Notes: generated from the letters alone by a model not told the origin. Shown: positions 21,813 through 39,634, numbered from the stretch's first letter. The stretch is 64,000 nt of DNA from Steroidobacteraceae bacterium (GCA_035481975.1 DATHRC010000008.1:15877-79876), one strand, 5' to 3'. Numbers and translations: made by a program.

Positions 21813-21924
21813 CCACCCCTAACGAAGAAGCCACGCCCGCGCGTGAGGGATGATGCGCCGGCCGCAGCGTGCGCCTCGTCATCGCGACACGGACAGAACA
21901 ACGCAAGAACAGGGAAAGGGAGCC

Positions 21925-24900
21925 ATGAATCCTGCAACTGTGCTCAAGGCCGTCGTCACGGCCGCCGTCACCGTCATTCTTTCCGCCAGCACCCTGTCCG
22001 CCGCGACGGCCGCGGCGCCGGCACTGAAGCGAAACGTCATCGTCATCCTGCGCGATCAGATGCCGATGCTGCCCGCAGTGCGCGGGCAGCGCGAGGCGCG
22101 CGCCGGGGCGCTGGCCTCGGCCCAAGCGCCGATCGTTTCCCACCTGCAGGCCTCCGGCGCAGCGCGCATCCGTGGCTTCGCGCTGATCAACGCGGTGGCG
22201 GCCAACGTCACGGCCGATGAGGAGCAGGCACTCGCCGCGCACCCGCTGGTGCAGGCGGTGGTGCCGGAGCGGGTGATCAAGCTGCCGCGTGCGGCGAATG
22301 CCCGCGCGGCGTTCGCCGGCGGCAACAGCGGCGCGGTCGCCGGCGGCGGCGCCGACGCCCGGCTGTGCAACACGCTCGAGCCCGAGGCGCTGCAGCTCAC
22401 CAACACCGCCTTCCTCGATCCGAGCGTGCCGCAGGCGCAGCGCGTGCGTGACGGCAACGGCGAATTCGTCACCGGCAAGGGTGTCAAGGTCGCCTGGATC
22501 GCCGACGGGCTCGACCCGACCATCCAGGGGTTCATCCACACCGACGGCACGCCGGTGTTCATCGACTACCAGAATTTCTCCGGCGATCCGGCCGGCACGC
22601 CCACCGGCAGCGGCGAGGCTTTCGGCGATGCGAGCTCCATCGCGGCGAACGACACGCCCAACGGCAAGGTGCTCAGCTTCGACATCAGCCAGTACGTCGA
22701 CAAAGCGCTCGGGACGCTGCCGCCCGGTGCATGCAACATCCGCATCCGCGGCATGGCCCCGGGCGCCTCGGTCGTGGGCCTTAAGGCCTTCTCGGCGCTC
22801 GGCGTCACCACCAACACCGCGATCGCTCAGGCGATCGAGTACGCCGTGGTCCATGACGATGTGGACGTGATCAACGAGTCCTTCGGCGGTAACCCGTTCC
22901 CGGACAACGACAACGATCCGATCGCGCTCGCCGACCAGGCCGCGGTACGCGGCGGCGTGGTGGTCGTGGTGAGCACCGGTGACGCCGGCTTCAACGGCAC
23001 CATGGGCACCCCGTCCACCGATCCCTTGGTGATCTCCTCCGGTGCCACCACGCAGCTACGGCTGTACCGGCAGGTGGGCTATGGAGCGGCGTTCTTTGCC
23101 AGCAACGGCTGGCTGAGCAACAACCTCTCGGCATTCAGCTCCGGCGGCTTCAGCATGAGCGGGCCGCGCGTGCCCGACACCGTCGCCCCGGGCGATGTCG
23201 GCTGGGCGCTGTGCGCACCGCTCGCCGAAACGGCGCTGTTCACCGAATGCGACGCGCCGCTGGGGGGCGAGGCGAAGCCGCCCGCCATCCAGATCTTCGG
23301 TGGCACCAGCGAGTCCTCACCGCTTACCGCCGGTGAAGCGGCGCTCATCATCCAGGCCTATCGCAGCACGCACCACGGCCACGATCCCTCGCCCGCGCTC
23401 GTCAAAGAGATCATCATGAGCACGGCGACCGACCTCGGCGCGCCGCCCAGCGAGCAGGGGGCGGGACTGATCAACGCGCTCGCCGCGGTCAACGCGGCGC
23501 TGTCGGTGCGGGATCAGAACGGCGGGGCGGGGCCGAGCGGCAACAGCCTGCTGAACAACCCGACCAACGTCAGCATCACCGATCTGCCGCGCGCACCGGA
23601 GAGTGTGACGGTGGCGATCACCAACACCGGCAGCGTGAAGCAGCTGCTCGAGCCCGAACTGCAGGTACTCGGGCCGCCGATCGCCGGCGCGACCACCACG
23701 GTGACGCTGGCGAAAAGCGACCCGATCTTCCCGAGTCCCGCCGGGCTGCCGCGCAACTACGTACTGCAGCACTTCACCGTACCTGAGGGTGCAGAGCACC
23801 TGGATGCGGCGATCGCCTGGCAGGTGAACCCGTTCACGGGTCCGGCGGTCACTGTCGATCTCGGCCTCATCGATCCGTCCGGCAAGGATGCGGGCTATAC
23901 CATTCCGCAGGGGGCCTCGAGCGCCTACGGGCATTTCGACGTCAACCACCCGGCAGCGGGGACGTGGACCGCGGTCATCTGGACGTCGGCCGTGAGCGAT
24001 AGTTACTACGGGCCGGTGGTATTCAGCTGGACCGCCGAGCGCTACGTGAAGTTCGGCTCGGTGTCGCCGGCGAGCTTCGAGCTGGCGCCGGGCGCGACGC
24101 AGTGGATCACGGCGCGCTTCAGCATGCCGGCGCAGCCGGGGGATGAGGCGGTCGCGATTCGCTTCGCCGGCAATGCGTCGCACGCGGAAGTTCCGATTGT
24201 GCTGCGCGCGCTGGTGCCGACCGGGCCGAACGGCGGCTTCTTCAATGGCACGCTGACCGGCGGCAACGGCCGCGGCTCGACCGGGCCGACGCAGACCTTT
24301 GCCTTCGACGTGCCGCCCGGGGTCAAGAACATGAGTCTGTCCGTGCAGGACTCCGACAGCTTCTGGCTGCTGGAGGGTCTGCTGGTGGCGCCCGATGGCA
24401 TGCAGCTGTCGGTCGAGCCGAACTTCGATGCGAACGAAAATCCCACGGTCACCATGCAGCTGAATCGTGCCCAGCCGGCGCCCGGTCGCTGGCGCTTCAT
24501 CCTGCTGCAGAATCTGTTCGCCTCGGGCAACGAGACGAGCCTGCCGTTCACCGCGCAGATCAACTTCAACGCGGCGCAGGTGAATGCCACAGGCCTGCCG
24601 CAGAATCCACATACCAAGCTGTCAGTGGCTGCCGGAGCGGTGAGCGTGCCGATCACGATCACCAACACCGGCGGGCTGGCGCAGGCATATTTCGCGGATG
24701 CGCGGCTCGAGGGCGCCCTGACGACGCTCACGTTCGGGACCTTCCCGGTATGCGGTGGACCACCCCCACTGACGCAGCTGCCGTATGCCTGCTTCGGTAC
24801 GTTCCTGCCGACGCAGGTGAAGAGCGCCCAGTTCATCGCGCAGGCGGGAGCGCCGATCACCATGGATGCGGCCGGCGACACGGGTTACCTGGTCGGCGTC

Positions 24901-25326
24901 ACCGGCGCACCGGATCTCACCGCGCGCTCGGTCGGGCCGAATACGGTGGTCGCTTCCATCACCGAGTCCGAAGTGCCGTGGGGCGAGTGGGAGATGTTTC
25001 CGACGCTGATCGGTCCTTACGGGCCCGCGGGCGCACCGACGACCCCGGTGAGCACCAGCGTGGCGCTGGAGCTGAAGCCCTTCGACGCGACGGTCACGTC
25101 CGACCACGGCGACCTCTGGTCCGATGTGACCTTCGGCACCAGCACGTTCAATCCGCTGGTGCTGGGCCCGGGTGCGACCGGCACGATCAACGTGACCATC
25201 ACGCCGAGCGCCTCGCAGGTCGGCACGACCGTGCACGGGATCATCTACGTCGATACGTTCAACGCGGTCGTTCAGACCGGCGATGAGGTGGTGGGCATTC
25301 CGTACAGCTACACCGTCACGCGCTGA
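21925..25326 (+). CDS. clan SB (S8/S53) serine peptidase with sedolisin-like active-site motifs, an I9-like propeptide and a ~620-aa beta-rich C-terminal extension
   Basis: The start was moved to ATG 21925 (verified; GGGAAAGGGAG lies upstream). A signal peptide and a propeptide-like region are present. Motifs are VAWIADGLD, SGEAFGD (Glu codon at 22615-22617), VSTGDAG and GGTSESSPLTAGEAALI (Ser codon at 23308-23310). No HGTH motif is present. Confidence 0.85.
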   Translation: MNPATVLKAVVTAAVTVILSASTLSAATAAAPALKRNVIVILRDQMPMLPAVRGQREARAGALASAQAPIVSHLQASGAARIRGFALINAVAANVTADEEQALAAHPLVQAVVPERVIKLPRAANARAAFAGGNSGAVAGGGADARLCNTLEPEALQLTNTAFLDPSVPQAQRVRDGNGEFVTGKGVKVAWIADGLDPTIQGFIHTDGTPVFIDYQNFSGDPAGTPTGSGEAFGDASSIAANDTPNGKVLSFDISQYVDKALGTLPPGACNIRIRGMAPGASVVGLKAFSALGVTTNTAIAQAIEYAVVHDDVDVINESFGGNPFPDNDNDPIALADQAAVRGGVVVVVSTGDAGFNGTMGTPSTDPLVISSGATTQLRLYRQVGYGAAFFASNGWLSNNLSAFSSGGFSMSGPRVPDTVAPGDVGWALCAPLAETALFTECDAPLGGEAKPPAIQIFGGTSESSPLTAGEAALIIQAYRSTHHGHDPSPALVKEIIMSTATDLGAPPSEQGAGLINALAAVNAALSVRDQNGGAGPSGNSLLNNPTNVSITDLPRAPESVTVAITNTGSVKQLLEPELQVLGPPIAGATTTVTLAKSDPIFPSPAGLPRNYVLQHFTVPEGAEHLDAAIAWQVNPFTGPAVTVDLGLIDPSGKDAGYTIPQGASSAYGHFDVNHPAAGTWTAVIWTSAVSDSYYGPVVFSWTAERYVKFGSVSPASFELAPGATQWITARFSMPAQPGDEAVAIRFAGNASHAEVPIVLRALVPTGPNGGFFNGTLTGGNGRGSTGPTQTFAFDVPPGVKNMSLSVQDSDSFWLLEGLLVAPDGMQLSVEPNFDANENPTVTMQLNRAQPAPGRWRFILLQNLFASGNETSLPFTAQINFNAAQVNATGLPQNPHTKLSVAAGAVSVPITITNTGGLAQAYFADARLEGALTTLTFGTFPVCGGPPPLTQLPYACFGTFLPTQVKSAQFIAQAGAPITMDAAGDTGYLVGVTGAPDLTARSVGPNTVVASITESEVPWGEWEMFPTLIGPYGPAGAPTTPVSTSVALELKPFDATVTSDHGDLWSDVTFGTSTFNPLVLGPGATGTINVTITPSASQVGTTVHGIIYVDTFNAVVQTGDEVVGIPYSYTVTR

Positions 25327-25399: not shown

Positions 25400-27979
25400 T
25401 CAGCTGCCGATCCTGACCTGGTAAGTGACGGTGAGCGCCCCGCCCGAGCGAAGCGAGCCGCCGAAGCTCCATTGCACCGCGCCGGTGCCGCCCGCCGCAG
25501 GCTGGGTGGTCACGCTGCAGCTGCTCACGCCCGCGGGCAGTGTGCCCGGGCAGGCCGCCGACACGAAGGTAGTAAAGGCGGGCGTCGCATCGCTGATCAC
25601 GAGTGTCGACACGGTCTGCGCACCGGTGTTGGTGGCGGTGAGGGTGTACTGCAGCGTGTCGCCAGGATTGGCATTCACGGCAGTTGCCGCGCCACCGCCC
25701 TGAGTGAGGTTGCTGACCAGCTTGACGAGCGACAGCGTGCCGGTCGCGCCGACCGTGGTCAGGTCGCTGGCGCTCACCGTGGCCGCGAGCGCCGGGCTGG
25801 CATTGCTGTACTGGCATGCGGCGCTGACGGTGACGGCGCTCTGCGCCCCGGCCGCGGCGCCGGCGGGCACCTGCACCTTGACGATCAGGCAGACCTTCTG
25901 ACCGGCCGTGACCGCGATGGGCGCGCTGATCTGCGGATCGCTGCCGCTGAGCGTGCCGCTGCAGCTCAAATCCTGGTAGAGCACCGCGGTCCACGGCGGC
26001 GCGGCCGGCGCACTGCTGGCGGCGATCGCGAAGCTCACCTGCCCGGCGCTGCCGGCAATGAAGGTGTGGGCGTACTGCACGGTCGCGCCCGGCTGCGCCT
26101 GCTGCGCGCCGTTGGGGGCGAGACTGTTGGGCGGCACCAGCCCGAAGCTCACCCCGGTATAAGCCTGGCCGGCCACCGGTGTGAAACTCACGCTCGGACG
26201 TGAGTAACTGCCGCCGCTGGTTCCGGCACTGCCGCCGGTGGCGAGATAGCCGCTCGGGGCGAGCGGGGTGACGGTGAGCGTGCCGCTGGCGGTGGCCGGT
26301 ATCCACAGCGTATAGGTGCCCGCCGCCGGCGTGCGCATCGCGGTGGTGACCGCCCCGCTGCCCTGCACCAGCACGCTGCCGATGCCGGCTTCCGCGCCGT
26401 CCTGCACGCCGTTGTTGGCGATACCCGCGCCGGCGCCGGTGTCGGCAAACACCACGCCGCTCACGCTGCTGCCGTCGTACAGGCCGAAATTCTGCGGCGG
26501 CGGCGGTTCGCTCGGCACCACGTTGAGCTGGATGACGCCGCTCGGGTTCTGCGTGCCGAGCCAGCCGGCGGGGCGCGCAGCGATGATGTCGGTGAGCGTG
26601 CTATCCGCATTGAGGATGAGGCAATAGCTGCCGGCGGCGATCGGCGCGAAGCTGTACGCACCGCTTGCGGCGTTCACGGCGGCGGCCGCCGTGGCCGGGC
26701 TCTGACACGCCCCGCCGGTGAAAGGCGCGAGCTTGACGAACAGGCCGCTCACGCCGGTGCCGCTCTCGCCGCCGTCCAGGGTGCCATTGTGGTTGGCGTC
26801 GTTGTAGACCGTGCCGGCGATGGTCTGCGGCGGCGGCGTCAGGGTCAATGTGCAGGTGATGGCGTCCCCGGTCTGGGGCGTCAGCGTGAAGCTGGTGCCG
26901 GCGCCATGCGGCAGCACCGTGTTGGTGCCGCCGAAGGCCGACGCTCCCGGGCCGCTGTTGGTGCAGCTCATGCTGCCGGTGTACGCCGACAGCGCCGAGA
27001 AGCTGCCGGCCGCCATGGCGGCGCTCAGCGTGATGCTGTTGGTGCCGATGACGGAAGTTGCCCCGGTGCCGACGTTGCCGGCCCCGCTGGTGGTGGCCGC
27101 CTTGATGGTGGCCGCGGGGCTGGTGTAGGCGATGCTGGCGGTGAACTGGTCGGAGGCGCTGATGCGTCCGTTGATCACCAGGTTGAAGGTGAGCGGCGGC
27201 AGCGAGAGGGCGAACAACGCCGCCTCGTTACCCGAAAAGGCCGTCGAGACCTGTGTGGGGTTCGCTGTTCCGAGCACCACCGAGCCGTTGTAGTTGCCAT
27301 CTGTCGTCGTCGGCGCGCTTTCGAGCACGATGCCAGTACCGGTGCCCGACAAAGTCACGGCGCCGCCATTAAAGGAGGCGTAGTAGGTGACGTTGTCTAT
27401 CAGGCTCCAGCTCGAGGTGCTCGTATAGGTGATGGTCTCCGGCGCATTGGTATTCTCGCCGTCCGCGCTGTAGAGGACGAAGGTGCGCGCGTTGCCGGAG
27501 GCGTCCTTGACGGTGAGACCCGACAGCGTGGTGGTGCCGGTACCCGTCTGGTTGAGCCAATAGAATATCGGCTTGCCGGTGATGCCGTTGTAGGCGCCGT
27601 GTCCGAAGGCACCGCCGCCGCTCCACGAAGGCTCGGCGACCACGGCCATGCCGCTCGTGATCTGGGCGCTCAGGTTGAAGGTGCCGGCGCCGTTCGGCAG
27701 CGTGAAGGTGAGCGGCTGCGCTGCCACCGAGCCGGTGTTGAAGCTGGTGAAATCGAGCCACCACAGGCTCTGTGCGAACGTGCCGGTGCCGCTGCTCGCG
27801 TAGGAGCCGCCGGCGGCCAGCACCGGCGCGGCGCTCACCGCGAGCACCGCGGCGAGGAGCGCGGCGCGCAGCGGGCCTGCGCCGCGCAGCGGGCGTGCGC
27901 CACGCGGGAGGCGTGCGGCCCGGGACGGCGCTGCGCGCTGCCGCGGAACCCTGAGCGTGAAGGCGCCGCAATTCTTCAT
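25400..27979 (-). CDS. 859-aa exported adhesin-like protein: non-repeat head, two SdrD-B/Cna-B-like domains, two DUF11-type domains
   Basis: The start was moved to ATG 27979..27977 (verified); it overlaps the upstream stop as ATGA. A long Arg-rich n-region precedes LLAAVLAVSAAPVLA. SdrD-B-like motifs are GTVYNDANHNGTLDGGESG and GVVFADTGAGAGIANNGVQDGAEAG. The C-terminal DUF11-like motif is PGDTLQYTLTATNTGAQTVSTLVISDATP...LTVTYQVRIGS. Confidence 0.8.
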   Translation of the reverse strand: MKNCGAFTLRVPRQRAAPSRAARLPRGARPLRGAGPLRAALLAAVLAVSAAPVLAAGGSYASSGTGTFAQSLWWLDFTSFNTGSVAAQPLTFTLPNGAGTFNLSAQITSGMAVVAEPSWSGGGAFGHGAYNGITGKPIFYWLNQTGTGTTTLSGLTVKDASGNARTFVLYSADGENTNAPETITYTSTSSWSLIDNVTYYASFNGGAVTLSGTGTGIVLESAPTTTDGNYNGSVVLGTANPTQVSTAFSGNEAALFALSLPPLTFNLVINGRISASDQFTASIAYTSPAATIKAATTSGAGNVGTGATSVIGTNSITLSAAMAAGSFSALSAYTGSMSCTNSGPGASAFGGTNTVLPHGAGTSFTLTPQTGDAITCTLTLTPPPQTIAGTVYNDANHNGTLDGGESGTGVSGLFVKLAPFTGGACQSPATAAAAVNAASGAYSFAPIAAGSYCLILNADSTLTDIIAARPAGWLGTQNPSGVIQLNVVPSEPPPPQNFGLYDGSSVSGVVFADTGAGAGIANNGVQDGAEAGIGSVLVQGSGAVTTAMRTPAAGTYTLWIPATASGTLTVTPLAPSGYLATGGSAGTSGGSYSRPSVSFTPVAGQAYTGVSFGLVPPNSLAPNGAQQAQPGATVQYAHTFIAGSAGQVSFAIAASSAPAAPPWTAVLYQDLSCSGTLSGSDPQISAPIAVTAGQKVCLIVKVQVPAGAAAGAQSAVTVSAACQYSNASPALAATVSASDLTTVGATGTLSLVKLVSNLTQGGGAATAVNANPGDTLQYTLTATNTGAQTVSTLVISDATPAFTTFVSAACPGTLPAGVSSCSVTTQPAAGGTGAVQWSFGGSLRSGGALTVTYQVRIGS
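27866..27919 (-). repeat. three tandem 18-nt (6-codon) repeats inside the pre-signal n-region of the adhesin-like gene
   Basis: GCGCAGCGGGCCTGCGCC (27866-27883) and GCGCAGCGGGCGTGCGCC (27884-27901) differ at one position. A degenerate third copy lies at 27902-27919. On the coding strand they encode AARLPR-GARPLR-GAGPLR. Confidence 0.7.
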
Positions 27980-30900
27980 GGGGCACGCGCAGCGAAGTTG
28001 CCGTGCCCGGCGCTGTCGCGCGCCGCGACCGGCGCGCCGCCGAGCAGGCTCTCGTCGAACTTTAAGTTCAGCCGCAGATAGACGCCGCGCTGCGTGTACG
28101 CTTCGCCGGAAAGATCGGGCGCCGAAAAGCCCTGCACGTTGTAGCCGAGCGAGACCCACAGGTTCTTCCACACCAGGTAACCGACCACCGGTCCCAGTGC
28201 GTACTGACGGTCGCCGTCACCCCACAGCGCATAGCCCTGCAGACCGGCGTCCCAGCGGGGATTGAGATCCCAGGTGGAGCGCGCCCCGCCGAGCTGGGTG
28301 AGCGTGGTGCCGGCGAACCCGTCGGTCCAGTCGATGGCGCGCTTGGCCGCATAGCGCGCGGCGATCTCCCAGCCGCGCGTCGGCTGGATGTTGAGGTTGC
28401 CGGCGACGATCCATGCCATCTCGTCGAGGTTAAGGCCCGGGCCGAGCGTGGTGTCGTAGTCGCGCAGGTACTCGATCTGGCCGAGCGCGTTCCAGACATC
28501 GCTGTTCACCGGGCGGTAGGCGAACCCCGACTGCACGCGCGCCAGCTCGCGACCCTGCGGGCCCTGCGCCCCTTGCAGTCCGTCCGCCTCCTGGTTGAGG
28601 TCGGTCTGCTTCGTATACAGCGCGCGCTCGAGCAGCGTCCAGGACGCATCGAGCTTGTGGGCAACACCAGCGGTCAACAGCCAGGTGTGCGAGCTGTCGG
28701 AGGTCTCCCACTGCGCCTGGGAGGAGGCCTTCCAGTCGTGTGCGGCGGTGTAGTTCGCGCCGAGCGTGATCGCGCTCGCTGCGTCACTGATCACCCCGCC
28801 GAGGGGCACGACGCGCTGCGCACTGGCCGACAGCCCGATACCGTCCTCGAGCTTCCACTGCTGGCGCAGGCCGATCGCCGCTTCGCTGCTGCGCCCGTCG
28901 ATGCCGTCGCCGACGCGGTACTCATCGAACAGCTGCGTGTTGTCGGGGAGCGTGGTGCTCAGGCCCGCCACCGTGGTGTACTGCTGCACCTGCGGATCGA
29001 GCGAGTAGGGGCCGTTGAGGCTGTTGATGAAGTCGTGCTGTGCGTACAGGTGCGTCGTGGCATTCAGCGCGTAGGTGCCGCCGACGCCGTATTCCTCGCC
29101 TTCGCCGGCGACGGCCTTCTCGGCGAGCGCGAAGGCTTCGGCACCCTTGACGTCCGGAACCGGCACGGTGACCTTGACGAGCGCGGCGGTGTAACCGGCC
29201 TGCGCGTTGTCCGTGCCCGGCGGCAGCACCGGGGGCACCGGTGTCGCCGGTGCGATCATGCCAGGCAGGGCAGGGGCGGACAGTGCCGCGGCCGCATTGG
29301 CGTCGCTGTGCAGCACGCCGACCTCCACCTTCGCCTTGCCGCGCAGGGTGTGCTCGAGCTTCACGTCCGCCCCGGTCTGCTCGGCTCCGGTGACACTGTC
29401 GGAGGTCCTCAGGCCTTCCGCGACGATCCGGTCGGCCGCGTCCAGGCGGTAAGCTCCTTTGAGGCCGTACTGGGCTTCGCCGGCCTGTTGCAGGCTGTTC
29501 GGGTTGTAGAAATCCGCATCGGTGTGCGTGCCCCACAGGTGCATCTGCAGCTTCGTGTCCTCGTGCTGCACGTCGAGGCGCTCGCCGAGGCCGTCGCCCT
29601 GCACGTCGCTTGCGCTGCGGGCCACTTCGGCGATCGCCGTGGTATGGGCGTCGAGCTTTTCGGTGAGGTTGACGCCTTCCAGCGTAAGCTCGTTGCCGGG
29701 GTCGGCATCGTGGATCGCGGTGGCGCCGAGGGTGAGCCCCGGGGTCACCTGCAGGCGCGCATCCGCGCCTTCCACCCAGTGCTTCGGGCCGCCGTCATCG
29801 ATCGAGTAGCTGACGTGGACGTAGACCGGGTTGAGGTTGGCATCGACGCTCGGCACCGGATTGGTGAGCAGCAGCAGCCCGGTGTACGGCTCGATGGCGT
29901 AGTCGGTGAACGGCGTCAGCGGGGTGTCGCTCAGGATGACTGACGGCTGATTGCGGTCGCGCGTGATGATGTCGACCTGCTGGCTGTTAGTGACGCCGCG
30001 CAGGTCGAGCTGGAACGGACCGGAGGTGCCGTTGGCGCGGAACTCGACGATGCTCTGGGTGCTGCTGGTGTCGCTGGCAAAGCCATCGACGGTGACGCTG
30101 CCGAGCTGCCAGTGCGCCTTGGCGCCGTTCAGGGCGCGCGCGTACTGGGTCAGCTGGCGGGCCGGGTTGTCGCTTTGCGTGGTGTAGTCGCCATACAGCG
30201 CGTAATTGGTGCCGTTCTGCACCATGACGTACAGCTTGCCGGTGGACTGCGCGTCGAAGCCGCGCGCCGCGGAGTCGCCGTACACCGGATAGAACTGGTC
30301 GGGCTGGATGTCGCGGAACAGCGTGGTGTCGGAGGGCTTGTCCGAGTCGTACGCGAGTGTCAGCAGCGTCGAGCCCAGGACCTTGCCCTTGAGGAACAGC
30401 GCGGTGCGCGCCGCGGCATCGTCCTTGCCGCTGTCGAAGCTGCTGGAGACATTGGCGATCTCATTCTCGAACACGTCGGTGCTCTGGGCCGGCTGCAGCG
30501 CCGACGGATTGAGATTGCGCAGGTTGAGGGAAGCGGACACGAGTCCCACGCCGAGCAGCGGCCGCAGGTTGGGCGTGAAATCGAGCGTGGTGGCGGCCTT
30601 CACCGCGCCGCTGCCGACCGCGATGTCGGTCTTGCCCGGCTGCGCCGGCGGCAGCAGCAGCAGCTGCGCCGCGCCGCCGCTGACGAACACCTGGCTGCCG
30701 TCCGCCTTCGCCACGTGCTCATCGGCGGGGATCTGCCAGCGGCCGAGACTGGTGGACAGCGTGAGCAGGGTGCGCGCGGCCACCGGCAGGCCGTCGGCAT
30801 CGCGCAGCAGCACCTTGACGGGTACCGCCGTGGCTGCGTCCGCCACCGCCGCGGCAGGCGCCTCGAGAATGATGCGCGCCAGCGCGCCCGGAGCGAGCAC

Positions 30901-33765
30901 GCTGATGGCGGCGCTGCCGCGCACAACGCCGAAGTCATCGAGGGCGCGCAGGCGCAGCTCATTCCTGCCGGGGGTGAGATCGACGCCGACGTACTCCCAG
31001 GCCAGCACGCCGGTTCTCTCCAGGCTGCTCTTCTGGCCGACGCGACTGTCAGCGAGGGTGTTGCCGTTGACGGTGAGCTCCAGATGCGTGCCGAGCGGCC
31101 CCTTCACCTGCACGCGCGTCTGCGCGATCGGCAGCACGTCGCCATCCTTCAGGTTGACGAAGCCCACCTCGGGTGAGAGCTGCGGCAGCGCCTTCTCCAG
31201 CGCCTCGGTGCGCAGCTGCGTCTGCAGGGCGCGGAAATCGGCGTAATTGCTGTCGTCGGCTACCGGCGGCGCCGGCGCCTGCTGCTCGAGCAGCTGCGCC
31301 GCACTGGTGGTGAGCTGCTGCGGCAGTCCCTGCGCCTGCGGCGCGTACGGGCCGCCGGGATCGGCCACCGCGCCGAGCGGCGCGGCCGCTCCCGCAAAGG
31401 GTGAGATGCCGGGCATGCCGGAGGCGAGCGGTGCCTGCGGCAGCAGCGTGTTGCTGCCGGTCGTGGTATCGGGCGCACCCGGCAGACGGATGACCCCACT
31501 CGCCGGCAGCGTGCGCTGGTCGACGCTGGTGGTGGTCGCATTCGGCGACAACAGGCTCGAGGCCGCCTGCAGGATCTCCGAGGGCGTGATCAGGGCCTGG
31601 CGCCGCGCGTTGATCTGCGCATTGAGGTCGGCGCTGCAGCCGGCGAGCGCGAAGTCGGTCTTGTGCAGCTCGCCGTTGGTGAGGTCGACGAAGGCGCTGC
31701 CACCATCGAAGGCATTGCGGTTATTGAGCACCTCGAGGCGCGTGCCCGCCGGCAGCGTGGTGAGATCGACCTTGGCCACGTGCATGCGCGGGGTGAGACC
31801 GTACAGGCTGTACTTGCCGTCTTCGTCGCTCACCACGTAGGTGCCGTCCTCCAGGTAGATGCGCACGCCGGGGATTCCGGGCTCGCCCGGATCCTGGATG
31901 CCGTTGGCGTTGCAGTCGGCGAACACCTTGCCGATGAGGTAGGCGTCGCTGGAGAACACCCCGCCGGTGATCTGCACGGTAACGCTGGCGCGATTCGACG
32001 CGAGGTGGCCGCTCAGCGCCTGCGCCAGGTTGGTGCCGCTGCCGCCCTGCGCACCGGCGCCGATGCGCACCCGGTAGCTGAGGGTCAGCTGGGCCGCCTT
32101 CGGCAGGGCGCCGAGCGCAAATTCCAGCGCCGGTCCGGCCCCGCCGGCCGGATCGGCGAGATGCGCACCATTCAGGCGGGCGCTGCCGTGCACGTAGGAG
32201 AAGCCCGCCGGCAGCTCATCGCTCACCACGCTCGCCGGCAACGCCGCGCCGGTGTTGTTATTCACCTGCACGCTGTAGTCGACGAAGTCGCCGAGCTGCG
32301 CGCTGAGCTTGTCGGCAGTCTTCTGGATCAGCAGGCCACCGGCTGCGCCGCCCGGATCGAGCGGCACGTCGAAGTGCACCGCCTGGTTCTGTGCGCCGGC
32401 GATGACAAAATTCCTGCCGTAGGAGCCTTGCGGATTGAGCACGCGGCCCGCGGGCTGCTGGGCCGGCGGCAGCGTCGAGGGAAACAGGTAACCGGCCGGC
32501 GGCGTGACAACCAGCCGGTAGGTACTCGGGGCCACGACCGGGAAAGCATAGCCGCCGGAGGCGGCGGTGACCACGGTCGCCGGCGCCGGGGTCGTGCCGT
32601 CGGACTGGAACACGCGCGCCGGCCCGCCGGCGTTACCGCCGTTGCCGGCGCCAGTGACGTCGATGAGCTCGACGCTCGTGGCCGCCACCGCATGGTTGCT
32701 GTGACTGTCGTACACCACGCCCGACGGATCGATGAGCAGCGTGGTGCTGGCCGACACCGCGCCGCCGGCGCAATGCGTCACGGTCGCGGTGACCACGTCG
32801 TTCGGCAGCACCTCGAGCACCCCGTCGCCCGCTACCACCGCATGCGTCGCCGCGTTCGCCGTGGGCACGTTCGGCTGGATGCGGAACACGCCGGTGTTGG
32901 CTGCGGTCTCCACGGCGTTGAAGGTGTCGACGTCCCCGGTCAGGCGGCTGGTGATCGTGACCGGCACGGTCAGTGCCTGCGCGGGATTGTTGTTGCAGAC
33001 GGCGGCATTCACCTGCACGAACAGCGGACTGCCGAGCGCGCCCGAGGCGCTGGCGGTGACGTAACTGCCGCTGGTGTAGTAGCCGATGGCCGGGGCGATC
33101 ACCGGCAGAGTGATGATCAGGGTGTTGCTCGGCGTGCTCTGGGCGGCACCACCGGCGCTGGCGGCCCAGCCGGCCACGGCCAGCGCGCTGATGGCGGTGC
33201 TGGCGTTGGCATTGACGCTGACGTTGAGCTGGCCGGCGAGCGTGGCGCCCGACGGCAGCGTCGCCACGGCGAAGGCCGCCGCGTCGATGACGGCGCCGCC
33301 GGGCGGCGCCGTGGCCCAGCTGTTGGCGGCGGTCCCCTGCAGGTGATAGAGCGTTTGCGCGCCCGCGGTCAGCGCGTGCGCACTGACGAAGCTGGTGTTG
33401 GCCGGTGTCTGGAAGGACAGCAGCACCAGGCTGGTGGGTGCGCCGTTCACGGTGAGCGCGATCGGCTGGGCCGCCGCGCCGCCCTGGTTCTCGGCGTTCG
33501 CGGTCAGCACCAGCACCGCCCCGGGGGTGCTGGAGCTGCTCGCTGAGCTCAGCGTCACGACCATCAGGGGCGTCGTGCCGGTGACGACCGTGGCGCTCAC
33601 CGTGTTGGAGCCAAAGCCGATCTGCTGCGCCGTGGCGTTGGTGTACAGGCCCGCGGCGGTGTTGCTGATGACGGTGCCCGCAGGCGGCGGCGCCGCCTGG
33701 CCCAGCGCCCACGGGATCAGCGGCAATCCGACGAGCAGCAGGTAGCGAAGCAGGCGGTGAAACAT
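27976..33765 (-). CDS. 1929-aa exported fusion protein: DUF11 / Cna-B-like / SdrD-B-like passenger, low-complexity linker, Ig-like domains and a ~870-aa beta-rich C-terminal outer-membrane-like module
   Basis: The start was moved to ATG 33765 (verified), giving MFHRLLRYLLLVGLPLIPWALGQA followed by APPPAGTVISN. Motifs are IDPSGVVYDS (Cna-B-like), LLIQKTADK...FVDYSVQVNNNTG (DUF11) and GKVFADCNANGIQDPGEPGIPGV (SdrD-B-like). The C-terminal part has alternating-hydrophobic beta patterns and ends GVYLRLNLKF plus a 26-aa tail. Confidence 0.8.
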   Translation of the reverse strand: MFHRLLRYLLLVGLPLIPWALGQAAPPPAGTVISNTAAGLYTNATAQQIGFGSNTVSATVVTGTTPLMVVTLSSASSSSTPGAVLVLTANAENQGGAAAQPIALTVNGAPTSLVLLSFQTPANTSFVSAHALTAGAQTLYHLQGTAANSWATAPPGGAVIDAAAFAVATLPSGATLAGQLNVSVNANASTAISALAVAGWAASAGGAAQSTPSNTLIITLPVIAPAIGYYTSGSYVTASASGALGSPLFVQVNAAVCNNNPAQALTVPVTITSRLTGDVDTFNAVETAANTGVFRIQPNVPTANAATHAVVAGDGVLEVLPNDVVTATVTHCAGGAVSASTTLLIDPSGVVYDSHSNHAVAATSVELIDVTGAGNGGNAGGPARVFQSDGTTPAPATVVTAASGGYAFPVVAPSTYRLVVTPPAGYLFPSTLPPAQQPAGRVLNPQGSYGRNFVIAGAQNQAVHFDVPLDPGGAAGGLLIQKTADKLSAQLGDFVDYSVQVNNNTGAALPASVVSDELPAGFSYVHGSARLNGAHLADPAGGAGPALEFALGALPKAAQLTLSYRVRIGAGAQGGSGTNLAQALSGHLASNRASVTVQITGGVFSSDAYLIGKVFADCNANGIQDPGEPGIPGVRIYLEDGTYVVSDEDGKYSLYGLTPRMHVAKVDLTTLPAGTRLEVLNNRNAFDGGSAFVDLTNGELHKTDFALAGCSADLNAQINARRQALITPSEILQAASSLLSPNATTTSVDQRTLPASGVIRLPGAPDTTTGSNTLLPQAPLASGMPGISPFAGAAAPLGAVADPGGPYAPQAQGLPQQLTTSAAQLLEQQAPAPPVADDSNYADFRALQTQLRTEALEKALPQLSPEVGFVNLKDGDVLPIAQTRVQVKGPLGTHLELTVNGNTLADSRVGQKSSLERTGVLAWEYVGVDLTPGRNELRLRALDDFGVVRGSAAISVLAPGALARIILEAPAAAVADAATAVPVKVLLRDADGLPVAARTLLTLSTSLGRWQIPADEHVAKADGSQVFVSGGAAQLLLLPPAQPGKTDIAVGSGAVKAATTLDFTPNLRPLLGVGLVSASLNLRNLNPSALQPAQSTDVFENEIANVSSSFDSGKDDAAARTALFLKGKVLGSTLLTLAYDSDKPSDTTLFRDIQPDQFYPVYGDSAARGFDAQSTGKLYVMVQNGTNYALYGDYTTQSDNPARQLTQYARALNGAKAHWQLGSVTVDGFASDTSSTQSIVEFRANGTSGPFQLDLRGVTNSQQVDIITRDRNQPSVILSDTPLTPFTDYAIEPYTGLLLLTNPVPSVDANLNPVYVHVSYSIDDGGPKHWVEGADARLQVTPGLTLGATAIHDADPGNELTLEGVNLTEKLDAHTTAIAEVARSASDVQGDGLGERLDVQHEDTKLQMHLWGTHTDADFYNPNSLQQAGEAQYGLKGAYRLDAADRIVAEGLRTSDSVTGAEQTGADVKLEHTLRGKAKVEVGVLHSDANAAAALSAPALPGMIAPATPVPPVLPPGTDNAQAGYTAALVKVTVPVPDVKGAEAFALAEKAVAGEGEEYGVGGTYALNATTHLYAQHDFINSLNGPYSLDPQVQQYTTVAGLSTTLPDNTQLFDEYRVGDGIDGRSSEAAIGLRQQWKLEDGIGLSASAQRVVPLGGVISDAASAITLGANYTAAHDWKASSQAQWETSDSSHTWLLTAGVAHKLDASWTLLERALYTKQTDLNQEADGLQGAQGPQGRELARVQSGFAYRPVNSDVWNALGQIEYLRDYDTTLGPGLNLDEMAWIVAGNLNIQPTRGWEIAARYAAKRAIDWTDGFAGTTLTQLGGARSTWDLNPRWDAGLQGYALWGDGDRQYALGPVVGYLVWKNLWVSLGYNVQGFSAPDLSGEAYTQRGVYLRLNLKFDESLLGGAPVAARDSAGHGNFAARAP

Positions 33766-33826
33766 TGGGGTGGGCGCGGCGCTGCGGTGACTTCTGGGCT
33801 TGGCGAGCGAGCGACCATCCCGCAGC

Positions 33827-33854
33827 GACGGGGGAGGCGGGCGCCTCCCCCGTC
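33827..33854 (-). promoter_or_regulatory. strong intra-operon stem-loop immediately after the 883-aa repeat-protein gene
   Basis: GACGGGGGAGGCG-gg-CGCCTCCCCCGTC has 13 complementary positions (realistically an 11-bp stem and a 6-nt loop). It begins 6 nt downstream of the stop at 33861-33863 and lies about 60 nt upstream of ATG 33765. There is no U-tract. Confidence 0.55.
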
Positions 33855-33860
33855 CCTGCC

Positions 33861-36512
33861 TCAGTGGTTCACCGCCACGCCGAAGGTGATGACCGCCGAC
33901 TGCCCGGGTGTCAGAGTGCCGACATTGGCGCTGAAGGAGCCGGTGCCGCCCACCGCCGGCGCGCCACCCGCGATACTGCCGACGGTCGTGGCTGGCGCGG
34001 TGCTCAAGGTGGTGAAGGTGGGGGTGGCGTCCGATACCACCACCGCGGTGGCGTTGCTCGAGCCGCTGTTGGTGACGGTGATCTGGTAGTCCACGCACTG
34101 CGCCGGTTTGGCGCTGATGGTGGTGGCGGCGTACACGGTGCCACCCGTCGGGCCGGTGCAGCCGGCATCGAGCGCCTGCAGCTTGAGCAGCGTCAGGTTA
34201 CCGGCGACCACCGTGGTGGTGTCGACGGCCACGGCGGGCGCCGGAGCGGCGGACACGTAGCTGCCGTTGGTGGTGGTGGCCGTGTTGGTGGTGGTATCGA
34301 CCGCCCCCACCGTGGCGGCGGCCGGTGCGATCACCTTGACGAAGATGGTGATCGACTGACCGGGGGCGAGGCCCGCGCCGAGACCGGTGACCGTGTTGAG
34401 ATTGCCGGTGATCTGCGGGTCGTTCGCATCCAGGCTGCTGCCGCCATCGGCGTCGTAGTAGAGCTGCGAGGTCCAGCCGGCCTGGTTGTTGGCGCTGGTG
34501 AAGGCAATGGTGCTCACCGTGCCGTTGCCCTCGACGACGTTGCCGTTGTTGGTGAGCGTCTGGGTGTAGACGAAGGAACCTCCCGCCGCGACCTGTCCAG
34601 AGTGGTTGGGCGTGAAGGTGAGCGAGCGCGTCGCGTTGACCGTCACCGCGTCAAAAATGGTGTCGGTCGCCGCGGAATTGGGCGACAGCGCGCGGAAGTA
34701 CAGGTTGTTGCTGCTGGCGGCGAAACCGGCCGGCACGGTCACGACCGCGCACACCACCACGTTGCTGAGCGAGGCCACGGTGCCGGTGTTGGTGATCGTG
34801 GCGCCGGTGGTGGAGCAGTTGCCCGCGCCACCGTCGGCCTTGAAGGTCACTGTCCAGCCGGCCGGCAACGTCTGGCTGGAGAAGTTCGCCACGGTGCTGG
34901 CCGCCAGGTTGTAGTTGTCGGGCGAGGGGCCGCGGTTGTTGGCCACCAGGATGAAGGTGGTGCTGCTGCCCGGGGCGGTGGTGTTGGTGATCACCGGGGA
35001 GCCTTCCGGCCCCGGACCCTGGCCCGGCGCCGGCGAGCCGGCGTTGTAGGGGCTGTTGTTGGTCACGTCGACCGCATTGGAGGAGATCGCGCTCAGCGTG
35101 TCGGTCGCGGTCGCGGTCACCGCCGCGTTGAACACGGAAGCGGCGCTCTTCTGCACGGTGAACGGCGCACCGGTGTTGGTGGCGTTCGCCGGCAGGTTGG
35201 CCTTGACGATGACGTTGTAGGTGGCGCCCGCCGCCAGCGGCCCGGTATCGGCAATGCCGTCGCCGTTGGTGTCGGTGAGCGGCGTGACGCCGTCGCTCTT
35301 GAACAGCTGGAAGGTGGTGCCGGCGGGGAAAGTGTTGGTGCCGACGGTGATATTGAAGGTGTCGGTACCGTTACCGGTGTTGGTCACCGTATTGGTGAAG
35401 CTCACCGCCGAGCCCGGCGCCGCCGGTCCCGCCACCGTCTGGCCGGTGAAGGTCAGCGCCACCGTCTGCCGCACCGTGAACGGCACGGTGTTGGTGCTGC
35501 CGCTGACGTTGGTGCCGCCGCCGTTGCTGTAGATGTAGGTCGCGGTATTGTTCAGGACGCCGGCGGCGGTGGCCGCAGCGACGTTCACCTGGAAAGTCAC
35601 CGTGCCGGACTGCCCGGCGGTCACCTGGGCGAGCGTCGCCGTGAAGGTGTTGCTGGCGGCGGTGTAGCTGGAGGTGATGGTATTGGGCGCAGTACCGCTG
35701 GTGCCCCCGGTATCCGACAGCGCCGTGGCTCCCGTGACGCTCCAGCGCCCGGAGCCGGCCACATAGGTGAGGCCGGTGGGGATCGCATCGGTGAGCGCTA
35801 CGCTGGTGGCGGTGCTGTTGCCGGTGTTGGTGTAGCTCAGCGTATAGGTATAGGGACCGGAGGGGGCATTGCCGCTGGCCGCGCTCACCGCCTTGGTGAT
35901 GACCACCGCGGCGTTGTTGGTGACCGTGGTGACGTCGGTGTTGCTGCCGCTCTTGGTGTTGTCGAACACGCTGGTGGCGGTGACGGTGACCGTATTGGTC
36001 TGTCCGGCGGTCGCCGTGCCCGGCAGGGTGGCGGCGACCACGAAGCGGAAGGTCGCCCCGGAGTTGACCGCGCCGCTCGAGGTGAGCGGTGAGCCGGTCG
36101 GCTGACCACTGCCGTTGTCGGCATAGATCTGCACGCTGCTCATGGTGAAAGCGCCGGCATTGGCCGTCGTCAGATTGAACGTGTCGACGCCGTTGCCGCT
36201 ATTGGTGAGGGTGTGCGGGTAATAGACCACGCTGCCCGCGGTGGCATTCTGCGCACCGTTCTGGGTGAGCGTGAGGCTCGCCACCTGCTGCACGGTGGTC
36301 TGCACCACGTTGGAGGTGACGGTGTGCGACACCCCGGAGGTATCGGTGTAGGTGGCCGACGCCTGGTTGCTGATGGACGTGCCCGCCGGCGGCGGGACCG
36401 CCTGCACGCTGCCGACGGCGGCGATGGCGAGTACCGCGGCGACCAGGACGCTCGCAGCACGACGCAGCCGGCTGGTTGCAGCTGCGGACGGATATTGTTT
36501 GAATGCAGTCAA
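33861..36512 (-). CDS. 883-aa exported protein made of multiple DUF11-type (conserved-repeat, Ig-like) domains
   Basis: It has a TTG start at 36512, with GGAG 8 nt upstream on the coding strand. The signal peptide is ...VLVAAVLAIAAVGSVQA, followed by VPPPAGTSISN. The motif recurs as xYxxTLTNxGNxxDTF / TNTGNSTATSVALTDAIPTGLTYV / TVTNSGSSNATAVVVSDATP. Composition is Thr/Gly/Ala/Asn-rich. Confidence 0.8.
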   Translation of the reverse strand: MTAFKQYPSAAATSRLRRAASVLVAAVLAIAAVGSVQAVPPPAGTSISNQASATYTDTSGVSHTVTSNVVQTTVQQVASLTLTQNGAQNATAGSVVYYPHTLTNSGNGVDTFNLTTANAGAFTMSSVQIYADNGSGQPTGSPLTSSGAVNSGATFRFVVAATLPGTATAGQTNTVTVTATSVFDNTKSGSNTDVTTVTNNAAVVITKAVSAASGNAPSGPYTYTLSYTNTGNSTATSVALTDAIPTGLTYVAGSGRWSVTGATALSDTGGTSGTAPNTITSSYTAASNTFTATLAQVTAGQSGTVTFQVNVAAATAAGVLNNTATYIYSNGGGTNVSGSTNTVPFTVRQTVALTFTGQTVAGPAAPGSAVSFTNTVTNTGNGTDTFNITVGTNTFPAGTTFQLFKSDGVTPLTDTNGDGIADTGPLAAGATYNVIVKANLPANATNTGAPFTVQKSAASVFNAAVTATATDTLSAISSNAVDVTNNSPYNAGSPAPGQGPGPEGSPVITNTTAPGSSTTFILVANNRGPSPDNYNLAASTVANFSSQTLPAGWTVTFKADGGAGNCSTTGATITNTGTVASLSNVVVCAVVTVPAGFAASSNNLYFRALSPNSAATDTIFDAVTVNATRSLTFTPNHSGQVAAGGSFVYTQTLTNNGNVVEGNGTVSTIAFTSANNQAGWTSQLYYDADGGSSLDANDPQITGNLNTVTGLGAGLAPGQSITIFVKVIAPAAATVGAVDTTTNTATTTNGSYVSAAPAPAVAVDTTTVVAGNLTLLKLQALDAGCTGPTGGTVYAATTISAKPAQCVDYQITVTNSGSSNATAVVVSDATPTFTTLSTAPATTVGSIAGGAPAVGGTGSFSANVGTLTPGQSAVITFGVAVNH

Positions 36513-36565: not shown

Positions 36566-37090
36566 TCAGCCCGCAGGCGTGCCGGCGGCCGCGGCGGCGA
36601 CCGCCGGGGCGGCGGTGTTGACGCGTACGCGCGCGCTCACCTCGCGGCTTGCGCCCGCGGCGAGGATGCCGAGGTTCCAGCGCAGCGCGCGGTAGTCCTC
36701 CAGCGGCACCGCCGCGAGGCGCTCCCTGCCGTCGGCCTGGCGCACGCGCCGCAGCAGCGGCAGCGGCGCGAAGGTCGTGCCATCGGTGCTCGCCAGAGCG
36801 TCCGGGGGCAGCTGCGAGCCGTCGAGCAGCGTCGTGCCCGCCGGGATGGGCAGACTGGCGACCAGCCCCTGCACCGCCGCGGCGGAGTGATTCGTGTAGG
36901 TGACGCGGTACTCGAGTACGTCGCCTGGTTTGCTGGCCTGCACCGGATGCAATACGGACTTGCCGTCGACGGTCTCGACCTTCTCCACCTGCAACTGCGA
37001 GCTGACGAGTGCGGACTGCGCCCAGGCGACCCCTGCCAGAGCCAGACACGCGAACCAGACCGGCCAATGCCGCGGCGATATAAAACGCAT
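36566..37090 (-). CDS. 174-aa exported single-DUF11-domain protein, first gene of the operon
   Basis: ATG 37090 was verified, with GAAGG 6 nt upstream. The signal peptide is WFACLALAGVAWA. The DUF11-like core reads PGDVLEYRVTYTNHSAAAVQGLVASLPIPAGTTLL...WNLGILAAGASREVSARVRV. The protein ends in an Ala-rich tail. Confidence 0.75.
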   Translation of the reverse strand: MRFISPRHWPVWFACLALAGVAWAQSALVSSQLQVEKVETVDGKSVLHPVQASKPGDVLEYRVTYTNHSAAAVQGLVASLPIPAGTTLLDGSQLPPDALASTDGTTFAPLPLLRRVRQADGRERLAAVPLEDYRALRWNLGILAAGASREVSARVRVNTAAPAVAAAAAGTPAG

Positions 37091-37390: not shown

Positions 37391-37825
37391 TCAGCGTTCG
37401 TAACGTATGAACGAGGTGCGGCGCGCGAGCGTGTCATACAGCGCGCGCCCGGCGGCATTGAATTCCTGGGTGAGCCAGTAGACGCCGGCGGCCTGGGCCT
37501 GGTCGGCCGCGGCGTACACCGCGTGAATCAGGGCGCGCCCGATGCCGCCGCCGCGGGCCTGGGGATCGACGAACAGATCCTCGAGGTAGCACATCGGCTG
37601 CAATGACCAGCTCGATGGATGAAACAGGTAATGCGCGAAGCCGACGAGCGTCCCCTGCCGCTCCGCCACCAGTCCGTGCGGCTGCACGCCCGGCTCGATG
37701 AGCCGGGCAAACGTGCGGTCGGTCACCGCGGCGGGCAGATGCTGGCGGTAGAAGCGCAGATAGCCGTCCCAGAGCGGCTGCCATTGATCACGGTCATCGG
37801 CCCGCAGATTTCTGATCTCATGCAT
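37391..37825 (-). CDS. GNAT-family N-acetyltransferase
   Basis: 144 aa. The acetyl-CoA-binding motif A-like segment reads LEDLFVDPQARGGGIGRALI. Confidence 0.85.
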   Translation of the reverse strand: MHEIRNLRADDRDQWQPLWDGYLRFYRQHLPAAVTDRTFARLIEPGVQPHGLVAERQGTLVGFAHYLFHPSSWSLQPMCYLEDLFVDPQARGGGIGRALIHAVYAAADQAQAAGVYWLTQEFNAAGRALYDTLARRTSFIRYER

Positions 37826-39590: not shown

Positions 39591-39634
39591 GCGCGCCGCA
39601 ACAGATAATTCCAGGTCCGCCGGCGCATCTCTAC

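Follow-up and report, generated by a model that had tools for sequence, protein, structure and literature searches.

How a single bacterial protein uses an adhesin-type passenger fused to a beta-rich C-terminal module of some 870 residues is the question raised by a stretch of 64,000 nucleotides (nt) from Steroidobacteraceae bacterium (GCA_035481975.1 DATHRC010000008.1:15877-79876), here called the window. The protein, of 1929 amino acids (aa), is the product of the third of four genes on the minus strand, numbered 1 to 4 in the direction of transcription (Table 1). Our analysis tips somewhat in favour of gene 3 encoding the membrane-embedded base of an undescribed Gram-negative surface-fibre system specified by the four-gene operon. 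Two lines of evidence carry this reading: the models of the C-terminal module, which point to a very large outer-membrane beta-barrel, and the distribution of a split isopeptide domain over the products of the operon.

Reading-frame analysis of the window revealed a minus-strand open reading frame (ORF; 34098..27976) of 2040 open codons. The first Met with a signal peptide behind it (MFHRLLRYLLLVGLPLIPWALGQA) lies at nt 33765 and gives the 1929 aa reported in an earlier note on this DNA, and the 111 codons upstream of this Met overlap the end of gene 2. The stop codon of gene 3 and the start codon of gene 4 overlap as ATGA (ccATGA, window 27976-27979), which suggests translational coupling. 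A scan for promoters and terminators added no information. From the N-terminus, the protein comprises isopeptide-type Ig domains, a Pro/Ala/Gln-rich linker, two Ig-like domains and a C-terminal module of 843 aa. The Pfam matches (CarboxypepD_reg-like, DUF11/CLIPPER at residues 478-596 and SdrD_B at residues 613-674) all fell in the N-terminal half.

The linker contains 18% Ala, 13% Pro and 9% Gln, compared with 15%, 6% and 5% in the whole protein, in agreement with the earlier description of this segment, and its composition indicates that it is probably disordered. A gap of 70-120 aa occurs at the linker position in all related loci, and the linker sequence itself is kept only in close relatives. 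The Ig-like domains recognized in the earlier note were also recovered: the quoted peptide LLRDADGLPVAARTLLTLSTSLGRW sits in the second of them, the Foldseek matches of the pair include invasin and further Ig-domain proteins, and weak Pfam matches to Big_1/Invasin_D3 were obtained for this region in homologues. Passenger, Ig-like domains and barrel occur in one ORF in about 75 of 80 related genome loci, and the architecture is therefore not an assembly artefact.

To characterize the C-terminal module, we performed two AlphaFold2 (AF2) runs, one on residues 860-1929 aligned with 88 homologues and one on the barrel part alone with 106 homologues. The mean predicted local distance difference test score (pLDDT) was 79.8 and the predicted template modelling score (pTM) 0.66 in the first run; the corresponding values in the second run were 80.6 and 0.75. 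Both runs gave the identical 44 strand elements across residues 1071-1903. Forty of these are 7-17 residues long and are connected by short hairpins, and the four short ones (approximately residues 1263-1300) form a small subdomain within the module. Most of the 44 strands assigned by DSSP have one face that is more hydrophobic by 2-5 Kyte-Doolittle units (mean over 89 homologues); the alternating hydrophobic and polar runs of the earlier note thus reappear as amphipathic strands across the family. The peptides it quoted, namely LDFTPNLRP... (from residue 1061, nt 30585), GLKGAYRLDAADRIVAEGLRTSD, WLLTAGVAHKLDASWTLLERALYTKQTD and WDAGLQGY...NVQGF, were all located in the module.

A Foldseek search of the PDB with the barrel-only model returned only outer-membrane barrels among the matches listed (50 of 50, probability 1.0), including Deinococcus SlpA, LptD, TonB-dependent transporters and SprA, the translocon of type IX secretion systems (T9SS). 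Together with the AF2 models, this bears out the earlier proposal of a membrane barrel rather than a soluble sandwich or solenoid, and some 40 strand elements over 833 residues agree with its remark that the module is too large for a classical autotransporter. According to the models, the last 843 residues of gene 3 very probably form an outer-membrane beta-barrel. As modelled, the protein is a member of the general outer-membrane beta-barrel class on several counts: the signal peptide, the amphipathic strands, the conserved ...LRLRxKF last strand, the fusions of relatives to OmpA domains and the fold matches.

Sequence searches did not assign the module to a known family. Neither Pfam nor NCBIfam gave a family over the last ~870 aa of gene 3, and phmmer found no match when the last 874 aa were compared as a single sequence with all PDB sequences. 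A profile of 89 family members gave only marginal matches to PDB sequences (E at least 0.016), including a Vibrio porin at E = 0.03. A Pfam scan for C-terminal families covering the gene 3 protein and eight homologues yielded BBP2, Porin_4, OMP_b-brl, OmpA_membrane and KdgM in the homologues, mostly below threshold and in a few cases just above the cut-off. The novelty supposed in the earlier note stood up in these Pfam, NCBIfam and PDB searches, which gave no sequence match to the usher, LptD, BamA/TamA, FadL, intimin or autotransporter families. The barrel module of gene 3 contains no Cys.

The C-terminus of the module gave information on its orientation. The peptide GVYLRLNLKF, proposed in the earlier note as a beta-signal, corresponds to residues 1894-1903, with exactly 26 residues behind it; throughout the family, the last strand (...LRLRxKF) and the DExLF directly behind it are kept, and the tail beyond is variable. 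Within the resulting KF-DExLF element (window 28057-28045 and homologues), F and E are 100% invariant. A beta-signal that lies internally, not at the terminus, and bears a conserved acidic cap is unusual. In some relatives (P0188, P0218 and P0210), one or more OmpA peptidoglycan-binding domains (PF00691) are fused C-terminally to the barrel. An OmpA domain behind the barrel, or an OmpA-family gene next to it, places the C-terminus of the barrel in the periplasm; as read from these sequences, it is independent evidence both for the predicted topology and for a putative cell-wall tether.

Conservation within the barrel module is highest in the motif LFRDIQPDxFYPVYGDS (window 30330-30267; residues 1146-1166), in which P, Y, P, Y, G and D are invariant. 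The pLDDT of this region was below 50 in both AF2 runs (model residues 285-313 and 91-112, respectively). Because it is conserved yet not placed in the models, the motif is a candidate partner, gate or plug site.

On the size of the barrel, the models make it likely that the module forms one barrel of 30 or more strands. A single very large barrel of roughly 36-40 strands with a periplasmic C-terminus is predicted, which is probably larger than that of an usher (24 strands) or LptD (26 strands). The largest single-chain barrel known from experiment is SprA, with 36 strands (10.64898/2026.03.07.710327). Alternatively, the module might be a smaller barrel (22-30 strands) whose conserved N-terminal ~250 residues make up a large plug or a periplasmic domain, as in ushers or TonB-dependent transporters, or it might consist of two barrels in one chain. 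DSSP strings alone cannot assign strands to the wall, residues 1085-1312 contain both the motifs of highest conservation and two stretches of low confidence, and chains with several barrels have been predicted in other proteins (10.1101/2021.02.17.431615). However, the N-terminal strands of the module are also long, connected by hairpins and mostly amphipathic; neither a small barrel nor a TonB-dependent transporter nor an usher gives a good superposition (target-normalised TM-score at most 0.26); the pTM of 0.75 describes one coherent body; and 833 residues at about 21 residues per strand correspond to 38-40 strands. We therefore consider a smaller barrel or a pair of barrels unlikely, and retain the single large barrel.

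The second line of evidence came from the N-terminal half of gene 3 and from the other products of the operon, all four of which carry Sec signal peptides. In genes 1, 2 and 4, the Pfam DUF11 match stopped at position 84-85 of the 114 profile positions, at the physical C-terminus of the protein (position 85 in gene 1). The internal CLIPPER domain of gene 3 (residues 478-596) matched positions 2-113 of 114; by its sequence it is a complete CLIPPER isopeptide domain with all three triad residues, and in an alignment with the CLIPPER crystal structure 9IFR (PMC12617251) its K482 falls on the isopeptide Lys. The gene 2 polypeptide stops directly behind the strand ...AVITFGVAVNH and that of gene 4 ends in ...TVTYQVRIGS; these ends are alike across phyla, being ...TFGVxIN in gene 2 orthologues and ...VxFxVKV in gene 4 orthologues. 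The mature N-termini of gene 2 (VPPPAGTSISNQASATYTD...TSNVVQTTV) and gene 3 (AAPPPAGTVISNTAAGLY...GSNTVSATVV) share the motif GTxIxNxAxA...SNxVxxxV, likewise across phyla. In gene 2, no other stretch is as well conserved as this extension (column identity 0.78 and 0.70 versus approximately 0.55 elsewhere), and the same chain ends in a truncated acceptor domain. Genes 1 and 4 lack an N-terminal donor extension.

As a reference for the complete domain, we aligned 73 CLIPPER domains internal to gene 3 orthologues, which gave 134 columns. hhalign placed the truncated domains of genes 2 and 4 on columns 5-100 (probability 97.4%) and 6-100 (98.7%), respectively. The gene 2 extension was placed on columns 101-134, and the gene 3 extension on columns 105-134 when aligned globally and 109-128 when aligned locally. 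For each extension, 1 of 150 column shuffles matched the observed score, and local-mode alignments chose the same columns (P = 0.003 for each). When an extension was appended to a truncated domain, the Pfam match reached position 100 and gained 1.6-8 bits, compared with 0.5 bits for the reversed extension.

The residues of the isopeptide triad were divided in the same manner. K, D and N were each present in all 73 complete domains. The C-terminal domain of gene 2 kept K in 49/49 and D in 56/56 sequences, and that of gene 4 kept K in 36/39 and D in 47/47. Asn was found in the gene 2 extension of all 53 orthologues and in the gene 3 extension of 43 of 48, the latter accompanied by Ala in 48 of 48. 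In gene 1, the catalytic position is mostly Thr (D in 6 of 55 sequences), and the Lys position is K in 30 and R in 15 of the 55. On this sequence evidence, the mature N-termini of genes 2 and 3 are the two strands absent from the truncated domains, including the isopeptide Asn. Strand complementation between the operon products accordingly appears fairly probable to us, and the prospects of a covalent Lys-Asn lock at the joints appear evenly balanced. The suggestion in the earlier note that the protein might be both the anchor and a part of the fibre gains substance here, as the mature N-terminus of gene 3 holds the strand pair that is absent from the C-terminal CLIPPER domains of genes 2 and 4. 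CLIPPER was named in a 2025 survey, which covers intramolecular bonds only.

An exhaustive search showed that the barrel family comprises 2917 representatives at 50% identity (1253 at E of at most 1e-30), with at least 584 loci in GTDB species representatives from many Gram-negative phyla. Most members are 1.9-2.4 thousand aa long with the barrel at the C-terminus, and none has an informative name; the nearest relative of gene 3 (87% identity) is from a Steroidobacteraceae metagenome-assembled genome. We compared gene order in the 80 loci with enough flanking sequence. The order gene 1 (~170 aa), gene 2 (~900 aa), gene 3 and usually gene 4, all on one strand, was found in essentially all 80, which span Proteobacteria, Acidobacteriota, Verrucomicrobiota, Nitrospirota, Abditibacteriota, Balneolaceae and Desulfuromonadota. 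Orthologues of gene 2 were present in 60 loci, and orthologues of gene 1 lay upstream of gene 2 in 57 of 82. No further conserved neighbour (chaperone, sortase, ATPase or secretion gene) was detected across the 80 loci, and the literature searched contained no description of the operon or the barrel family. In many relatives (L032, L034, L043, L052, L056 and others), the equivalents of gene 4 are 1400-2800 aa long and lie 5-9 kb downstream of the barrel gene. Since these still end in a truncated CLIPPER domain, the tip proteins are apparently highly variable.

A different arrangement was found in Hydrogenophaga sp. XSHU_21 (locus L002, 1536-13078), in which gene 3 is split at the linker position. 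The first product is an adhesin of 2822 aa with DUF7933, CLIPPER and SdrD_B domains that ends in the CarboxypepD_reg-CLIPPER-SdrD_B module of gene 3. Its gene overlaps through ATGA with that of a barrel protein of 1025 aa, which consists of an Ig-like domain and the barrel and lacks the donor strand. An OmpA-family gene follows (13091-14176), and genes 1, 2 and 4 are absent. As far as gene content can tell, this split shows that the passenger module and the barrel are functionally linked even when unfused.

We propose that the fibre would be assembled head to tail by strand complementation. Gene 4, an acceptor only with a distinct N-terminal region, would form the tip; gene 2, with both donor and acceptor, would polymerise into the repeated shaft; and gene 3, a donor only, would form the base, ending the fibre and tying it to the barrel in the same chain. 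At every joint a CLIPPER fold would be completed, and wherever the Asn is present a Lys-Asn isopeptide bond arising spontaneously between the two molecules would lock it. Gene 1, an acceptor without the catalytic residues, may hold donor strands in a reversible manner, acting as a cap or chaperone in the periplasm, or may serve as an alternative or minimal tip. The barrel would anchor the fibre in the outer membrane, to which some relatives would add a peptidoglycan tether through the OmpA domain. Folded Ig domains, and lastly the passenger of gene 3 itself, might exit through the barrel, with the linker of ~135 aa or the Ig-like pair in the lumen and the length of the linker giving slack for the passenger. 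Since no other conserved export component lies nearby and a barrel of SprA-like size can pass folded proteins, the barrel is probably also a channel; export through it nevertheless seems to us a possibility of somewhat less than even standing. More tentative still is the full proposal of a widespread, as yet unrecognized diderm pilus or secretion pathway in which naturally split CLIPPER subunits would be exported in folded form through the largest single-chain barrel (more than 36 strands), and in which the barrel, itself the last fibre subunit, would act as a self-terminating usher, ending assembly with its N-terminal strand as donor and then fixing the covalent fibre to outer membrane and cell wall.

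Several observations weigh against these proposals. The TM-scores of the barrel model to all known barrels were at most 0.22, none of them superposed, and the scores were no higher when the Ig-like domains were dropped from the query; as the fold matches listed were nonetheless all to outer-membrane barrels, the fold class is clear, although no known barrel fits. The strand count, the closure of the barrel, its lumen and the position of the Ig-like domains or a plug rest on AF2 strand strings rather than coordinates. With 39-40 or more predicted strand elements, the parity, and hence the side of the membrane on which the N-terminus lies, may go either way. Because the extensions are short, the profile evidence for them, though significant, is modest (low hhalign probability, few Pfam bits). 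Asn is absent from 5 of 48 gene 3 extensions, so that the joint to gene 3 would not always be covalent. The barrel of the Hydrogenophaga type, which occurs without genes 1, 2 and 4, implies a barrel function independent of a polymer of split domains. That the products of genes 2 and 4 leave through the barrel is argued solely from the absence of other conserved genes. Finally, the evidence assembled for the family is computational throughout.

Alternatively, the barrel might serve as an anchor only. It would then hold the base of the fibre as an outer-membrane protein with a peptidoglycan tether, comparable to SlpA or OmpM/OmpA-like proteins, or as a porin, its lumen being plugged or used for solutes, and the subunits would leave the cell by type II secretion or by release assisted by the BAM complex. 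The best fold match is indeed Deinococcus SlpA, a 30-strand connector of outer membrane and cell wall, relatives carry OmpA fusions or neighbouring OmpA genes, and a plug could be formed by the ~250 aa at the start of the module, which are conserved and include the small subdomain. Yet the TM-score to SlpA is only 0.2 and no SLH domain is present, no secretion genes are conserved near the operon in the 80 loci, and about 40 strands would be needlessly large for a tether that OmpA achieves with 8. Moreover, an even number of strands with both ends in the periplasm would still require the fused passenger to cross the membrane. We regard a barrel that only anchors as unlikely.

It is more improbable that gene 3 is a giant autotransporter-like adhesin whose barrel exports and anchors only its own passenger, with genes 1, 2 and 4 as independent adhesins or matrix proteins and the shared motifs as ordinary CLIPPER boundaries. 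The order of passenger, linker and C-terminal barrel does follow the logic of type Va systems, the Hydrogenophaga-type loci combine a single adhesin with a stand-alone barrel without genes 1, 2 and 4, and the evidence for complementation is statistical and sequence-based, not structural. On the other side, synteny of the four genes extends across phyla, three of the proteins break off at one and the same position of the domain, and the orphan strand pair stands at two mature N-termini, being in gene 2 better conserved than any other part. The triad, furthermore, is split precisely between the partners, and degenerate boundaries would not stay so conserved. Finally, the donor strand of gene 2 might fold into the C-terminal domain of its own chain, as in the self-complemented monomers of the type 1 pilus subunit FimA (PMC6615685), to give closed monomers and no polymer; donor and acceptor do occur in one gene 2 chain, but ~700 residues of tandem Ig domains lie between its ends, and with an acceptor without donor in genes 4 and 1 and a donor without acceptor in gene 3 only pairing between proteins makes sense, so that self-complementation is very improbable.

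Read as a fibre system with gene 3 at its base, the operon would work most like a chaperone-usher pilus and also resembles sortase pili, and by its sequences it is homologous to neither machinery. As in chaperone-usher pili (Fim/Pap), Sec-exported subunits of Ig fold have an incomplete fold that would be completed by the N-terminal extension of the next subunit, the assembly platform would be an outer-membrane beta-barrel that needs no periplasmic ATP source, and the operon encodes, beside a major subunit and a barrel protein, a tip adhesin and a small accessory protein. In contrast to those pili, the predicted barrel has ~40 strands instead of 24 and forms one chain with the last fibre subunit, the subunits, which are of the CnaA/CnaB type, have several domains and a joint that carries an isopeptide triad, and the small accessory protein accepts a strand instead of donating one. 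No Pfam match to the usher families (PF00577, PapC_N and PapC_C) was obtained in gene 3 and the eight homologues, and no usher appeared in the PDB profile search or among the 50 fold matches listed. A gene for a PapD-like chaperone was likewise not found: the domains of the operon genes are only CLIPPER, SpaA_3 and SdrD_B, and no other neighbour is conserved in the 80 loci.

Sortase pili of the SpaA/RrgB type share with the operon the CnaA/CnaB-type isopeptide domains (here SpaA_3, SdrD_B and CLIPPER), a layout of tip, shaft and base and, as proposed here, covalent Lys-mediated links between subunits. They differ in that the link proposed here is autocatalytic within a split domain, that an outer-membrane barrel takes the place of a cell-wall anchor and that the hosts are diderm. 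No sortase gene was found in the window region or in the 80 loci, and because the products of genes 1, 2 and 4 end in the truncated domain, they have no LPXTG-type sorting region. The SpyTag/SpyCatcher, SnoopTag/SnoopCatcher and isopeptag systems divide an isopeptide domain into a strand with one triad residue and a domain with two, which ligate spontaneously. These pairs are laboratory constructs derived from Gram-positive CnaB or RrgA domains, whereas the split proposed here would be natural, lie in a CnaA-like CLIPPER domain and serve polymerisation.

In BsaA of Clostridium perfringens (TasA family) and in Sulfolobus threads, an N-terminal strand inserts into the next subunit and a spontaneous intermolecular isopeptide bond is formed (10.1101/2024.11.04.621531; PMC9715654). 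The combination of donor strand and isopeptide lock is the same as that proposed here, where it is read from sequence only. However, their fold is that of TasA or a thread subunit rather than CLIPPER, their triad is N-E-K rather than K-D-N, and they occur in monoderm or archaeal hosts with neither a dedicated membrane barrel nor a fused base subunit.

Type V secretion systems resemble gene 3 in having passenger and outer-membrane barrel in one chain, in the Ig-like domains beside the barrel (as in intimin) and in being Sec-dependent and presumably BAM-dependent. Those barrels have 12 strands; the barrel predicted for gene 3 is about three times larger and belongs to a multi-subunit operon. The Pfam search of gene 3 gave no match to the classical autotransporter family PF03797 at E up to 1 and none to the inverse autotransporter family IAT_beta (PF11924), and the gene 3 barrel lies C-terminal to the Ig-like domains. 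The segment N-terminal of the barrel, inspected for the alpha-helical linker of autotransporters, consists of the Pro/Ala/Gln-rich linker and two beta-sandwich domains. No autotransporter or intimin barrel was found among the 50 fold matches listed.

SprA/Sov (36 strands), SlpA (30) and LptD (26) are of the same fold class and size range and gave the best fold matches. SprA illustrates that such a barrel can pass folded proteins, and SlpA that a giant barrel can be coupled to cell-wall tethering. Unlike these systems, that of gene 3 has no SLH domain, LptD jellyroll, T9SS genes or cargo C-terminal domains, and its taxonomic range is different. LptD (PF04453) gave no Pfam or NCBIfam match and a Foldseek TM-score of at most 0.25. 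The SprA model TIGR04189 scored 8.4 bits (E = 0.24) against a cut-off of 200 bits, with a query-normalised Foldseek TM-score of 0.16-0.21. For SlpA and OmpM-type proteins, no SLH match was obtained, and the best fold match, to Deinococcus SlpA, had a TM-score of only 0.20-0.22.

If the proposal is correct, the operon would represent a new route to surface fibres in Gram-negative bacteria beside chaperone-usher, type IV, type V and curli systems and the adhesins of the type V secretion system, and a covalent polymerisation that requires no sortase. It would also set a size record for single-chain membrane barrels and leave to be explained how BAM can fold a protein of this kind. The system occurs commonly in Burkholderiales of soil and freshwater (Variovorax, Polaromonas and Ramlibacter), Steroidobacteraceae, Acidobacteriota and Verrucomicrobiota, and given this host range it may matter for biofilm formation, aggregation and attachment to roots or particles in the environment. 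Cultured hosts of the operon include Variovorax paradoxus NBRC 15149 and Polaromonas glacialis. New orthogonal Tag/Catcher reagents could, in addition, be derived from a natural split-CLIPPER pair.

Table 1. Features of the four-gene operon, with positions counted from the first nucleotide of the window
Feature	Position (nt)	Strand	Residues	Description
Gene 1	36566..37090	(-)		174-aa secreted protein; one truncated CLIPPER/DUF11 domain; TIGR01451 match
Gene 2	33861..36512	(-)		883-aa secreted multi-CLIPPER/DUF7619 protein; proposed shaft subunit
Gene 2 N-terminal extension	36291..36398	(-)	39-74	VPPPAGTSISNQASATYTDTSGVSHTVTSNVVQTTV; putative last two CLIPPER strands, including isopeptide Asn N49
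Gene 2 C-terminal truncated CLIPPER	33864..34199	(-)	772-883	Lys777 and Asp828 kept; Pfam positions 12-85 of 114
Gene 3	27976..33765	(-)		1929 aa; proposed base subunit with outer-membrane barrel; from ORF, Pfam and quoted peptides
Gene 3 N-terminal extension	33580..33693	(-)	25-62	AAPPPAGTVISNTAAGLYTNATAQQIGFGSNTVSATVV; right behind signal peptide; putative donor strand pair with Asn35
Gene 3 passenger module adjoining linker	31606..32718	(-)		CarboxypepD_reg/CnaB-like domain, complete CLIPPER (478-596; K482, D516, N579) and SdrD_B; from Pfam
Pro/Ala/Gln-rich linker	31180..31590	(-)	726-862	From composition
Two Ig-like beta-sandwich domains	30586..31176	(-)	864-1060	AF2 pLDDT above 90; 6 and 9 strands
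Giant outer-membrane beta-barrel module (predicted)	28057..30585	(-)	1061-1903	~40 long strands and small four-strand subdomain (~1244-1312); ends GVYLRLNLKF
C-terminal tail	27979..28056	(-)		26 aa, DESLLGG...; predicted periplasmic; DExL[FL] start kept, remainder variable
Gene 4	25400..27979	(-)		859-aa secreted protein; SpaA_3, SdrD_B and C-terminal truncated CLIPPER; proposed tip subunit
Gene 4 C-terminal truncated CLIPPER	25403..25741	(-)	747-859	Lys753 and Asp797 kept; Pfam positions 10-84 of 114

Upstream of the operon, the window contains genes for a GNAT acetyltransferase (37391-37825, minus strand), an amino-acid permease (38154-39590, minus strand) and a GMC oxidoreductase (39581-41281, plus strand), which are of housekeeping type and are not kept beside the operon elsewhere. 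On the other side, an ORF of 1158 aa encoding an S8 subtilase (21850-25326, plus strand) lies tail to tail with gene 4. We considered this protease as a core processing enzyme of the system and rejected it, as it occupies the same position only in the two closest relatives (L003 and L019), the other ~75 loci having no such gene there; a processing role confined to this lineage is conceivable.

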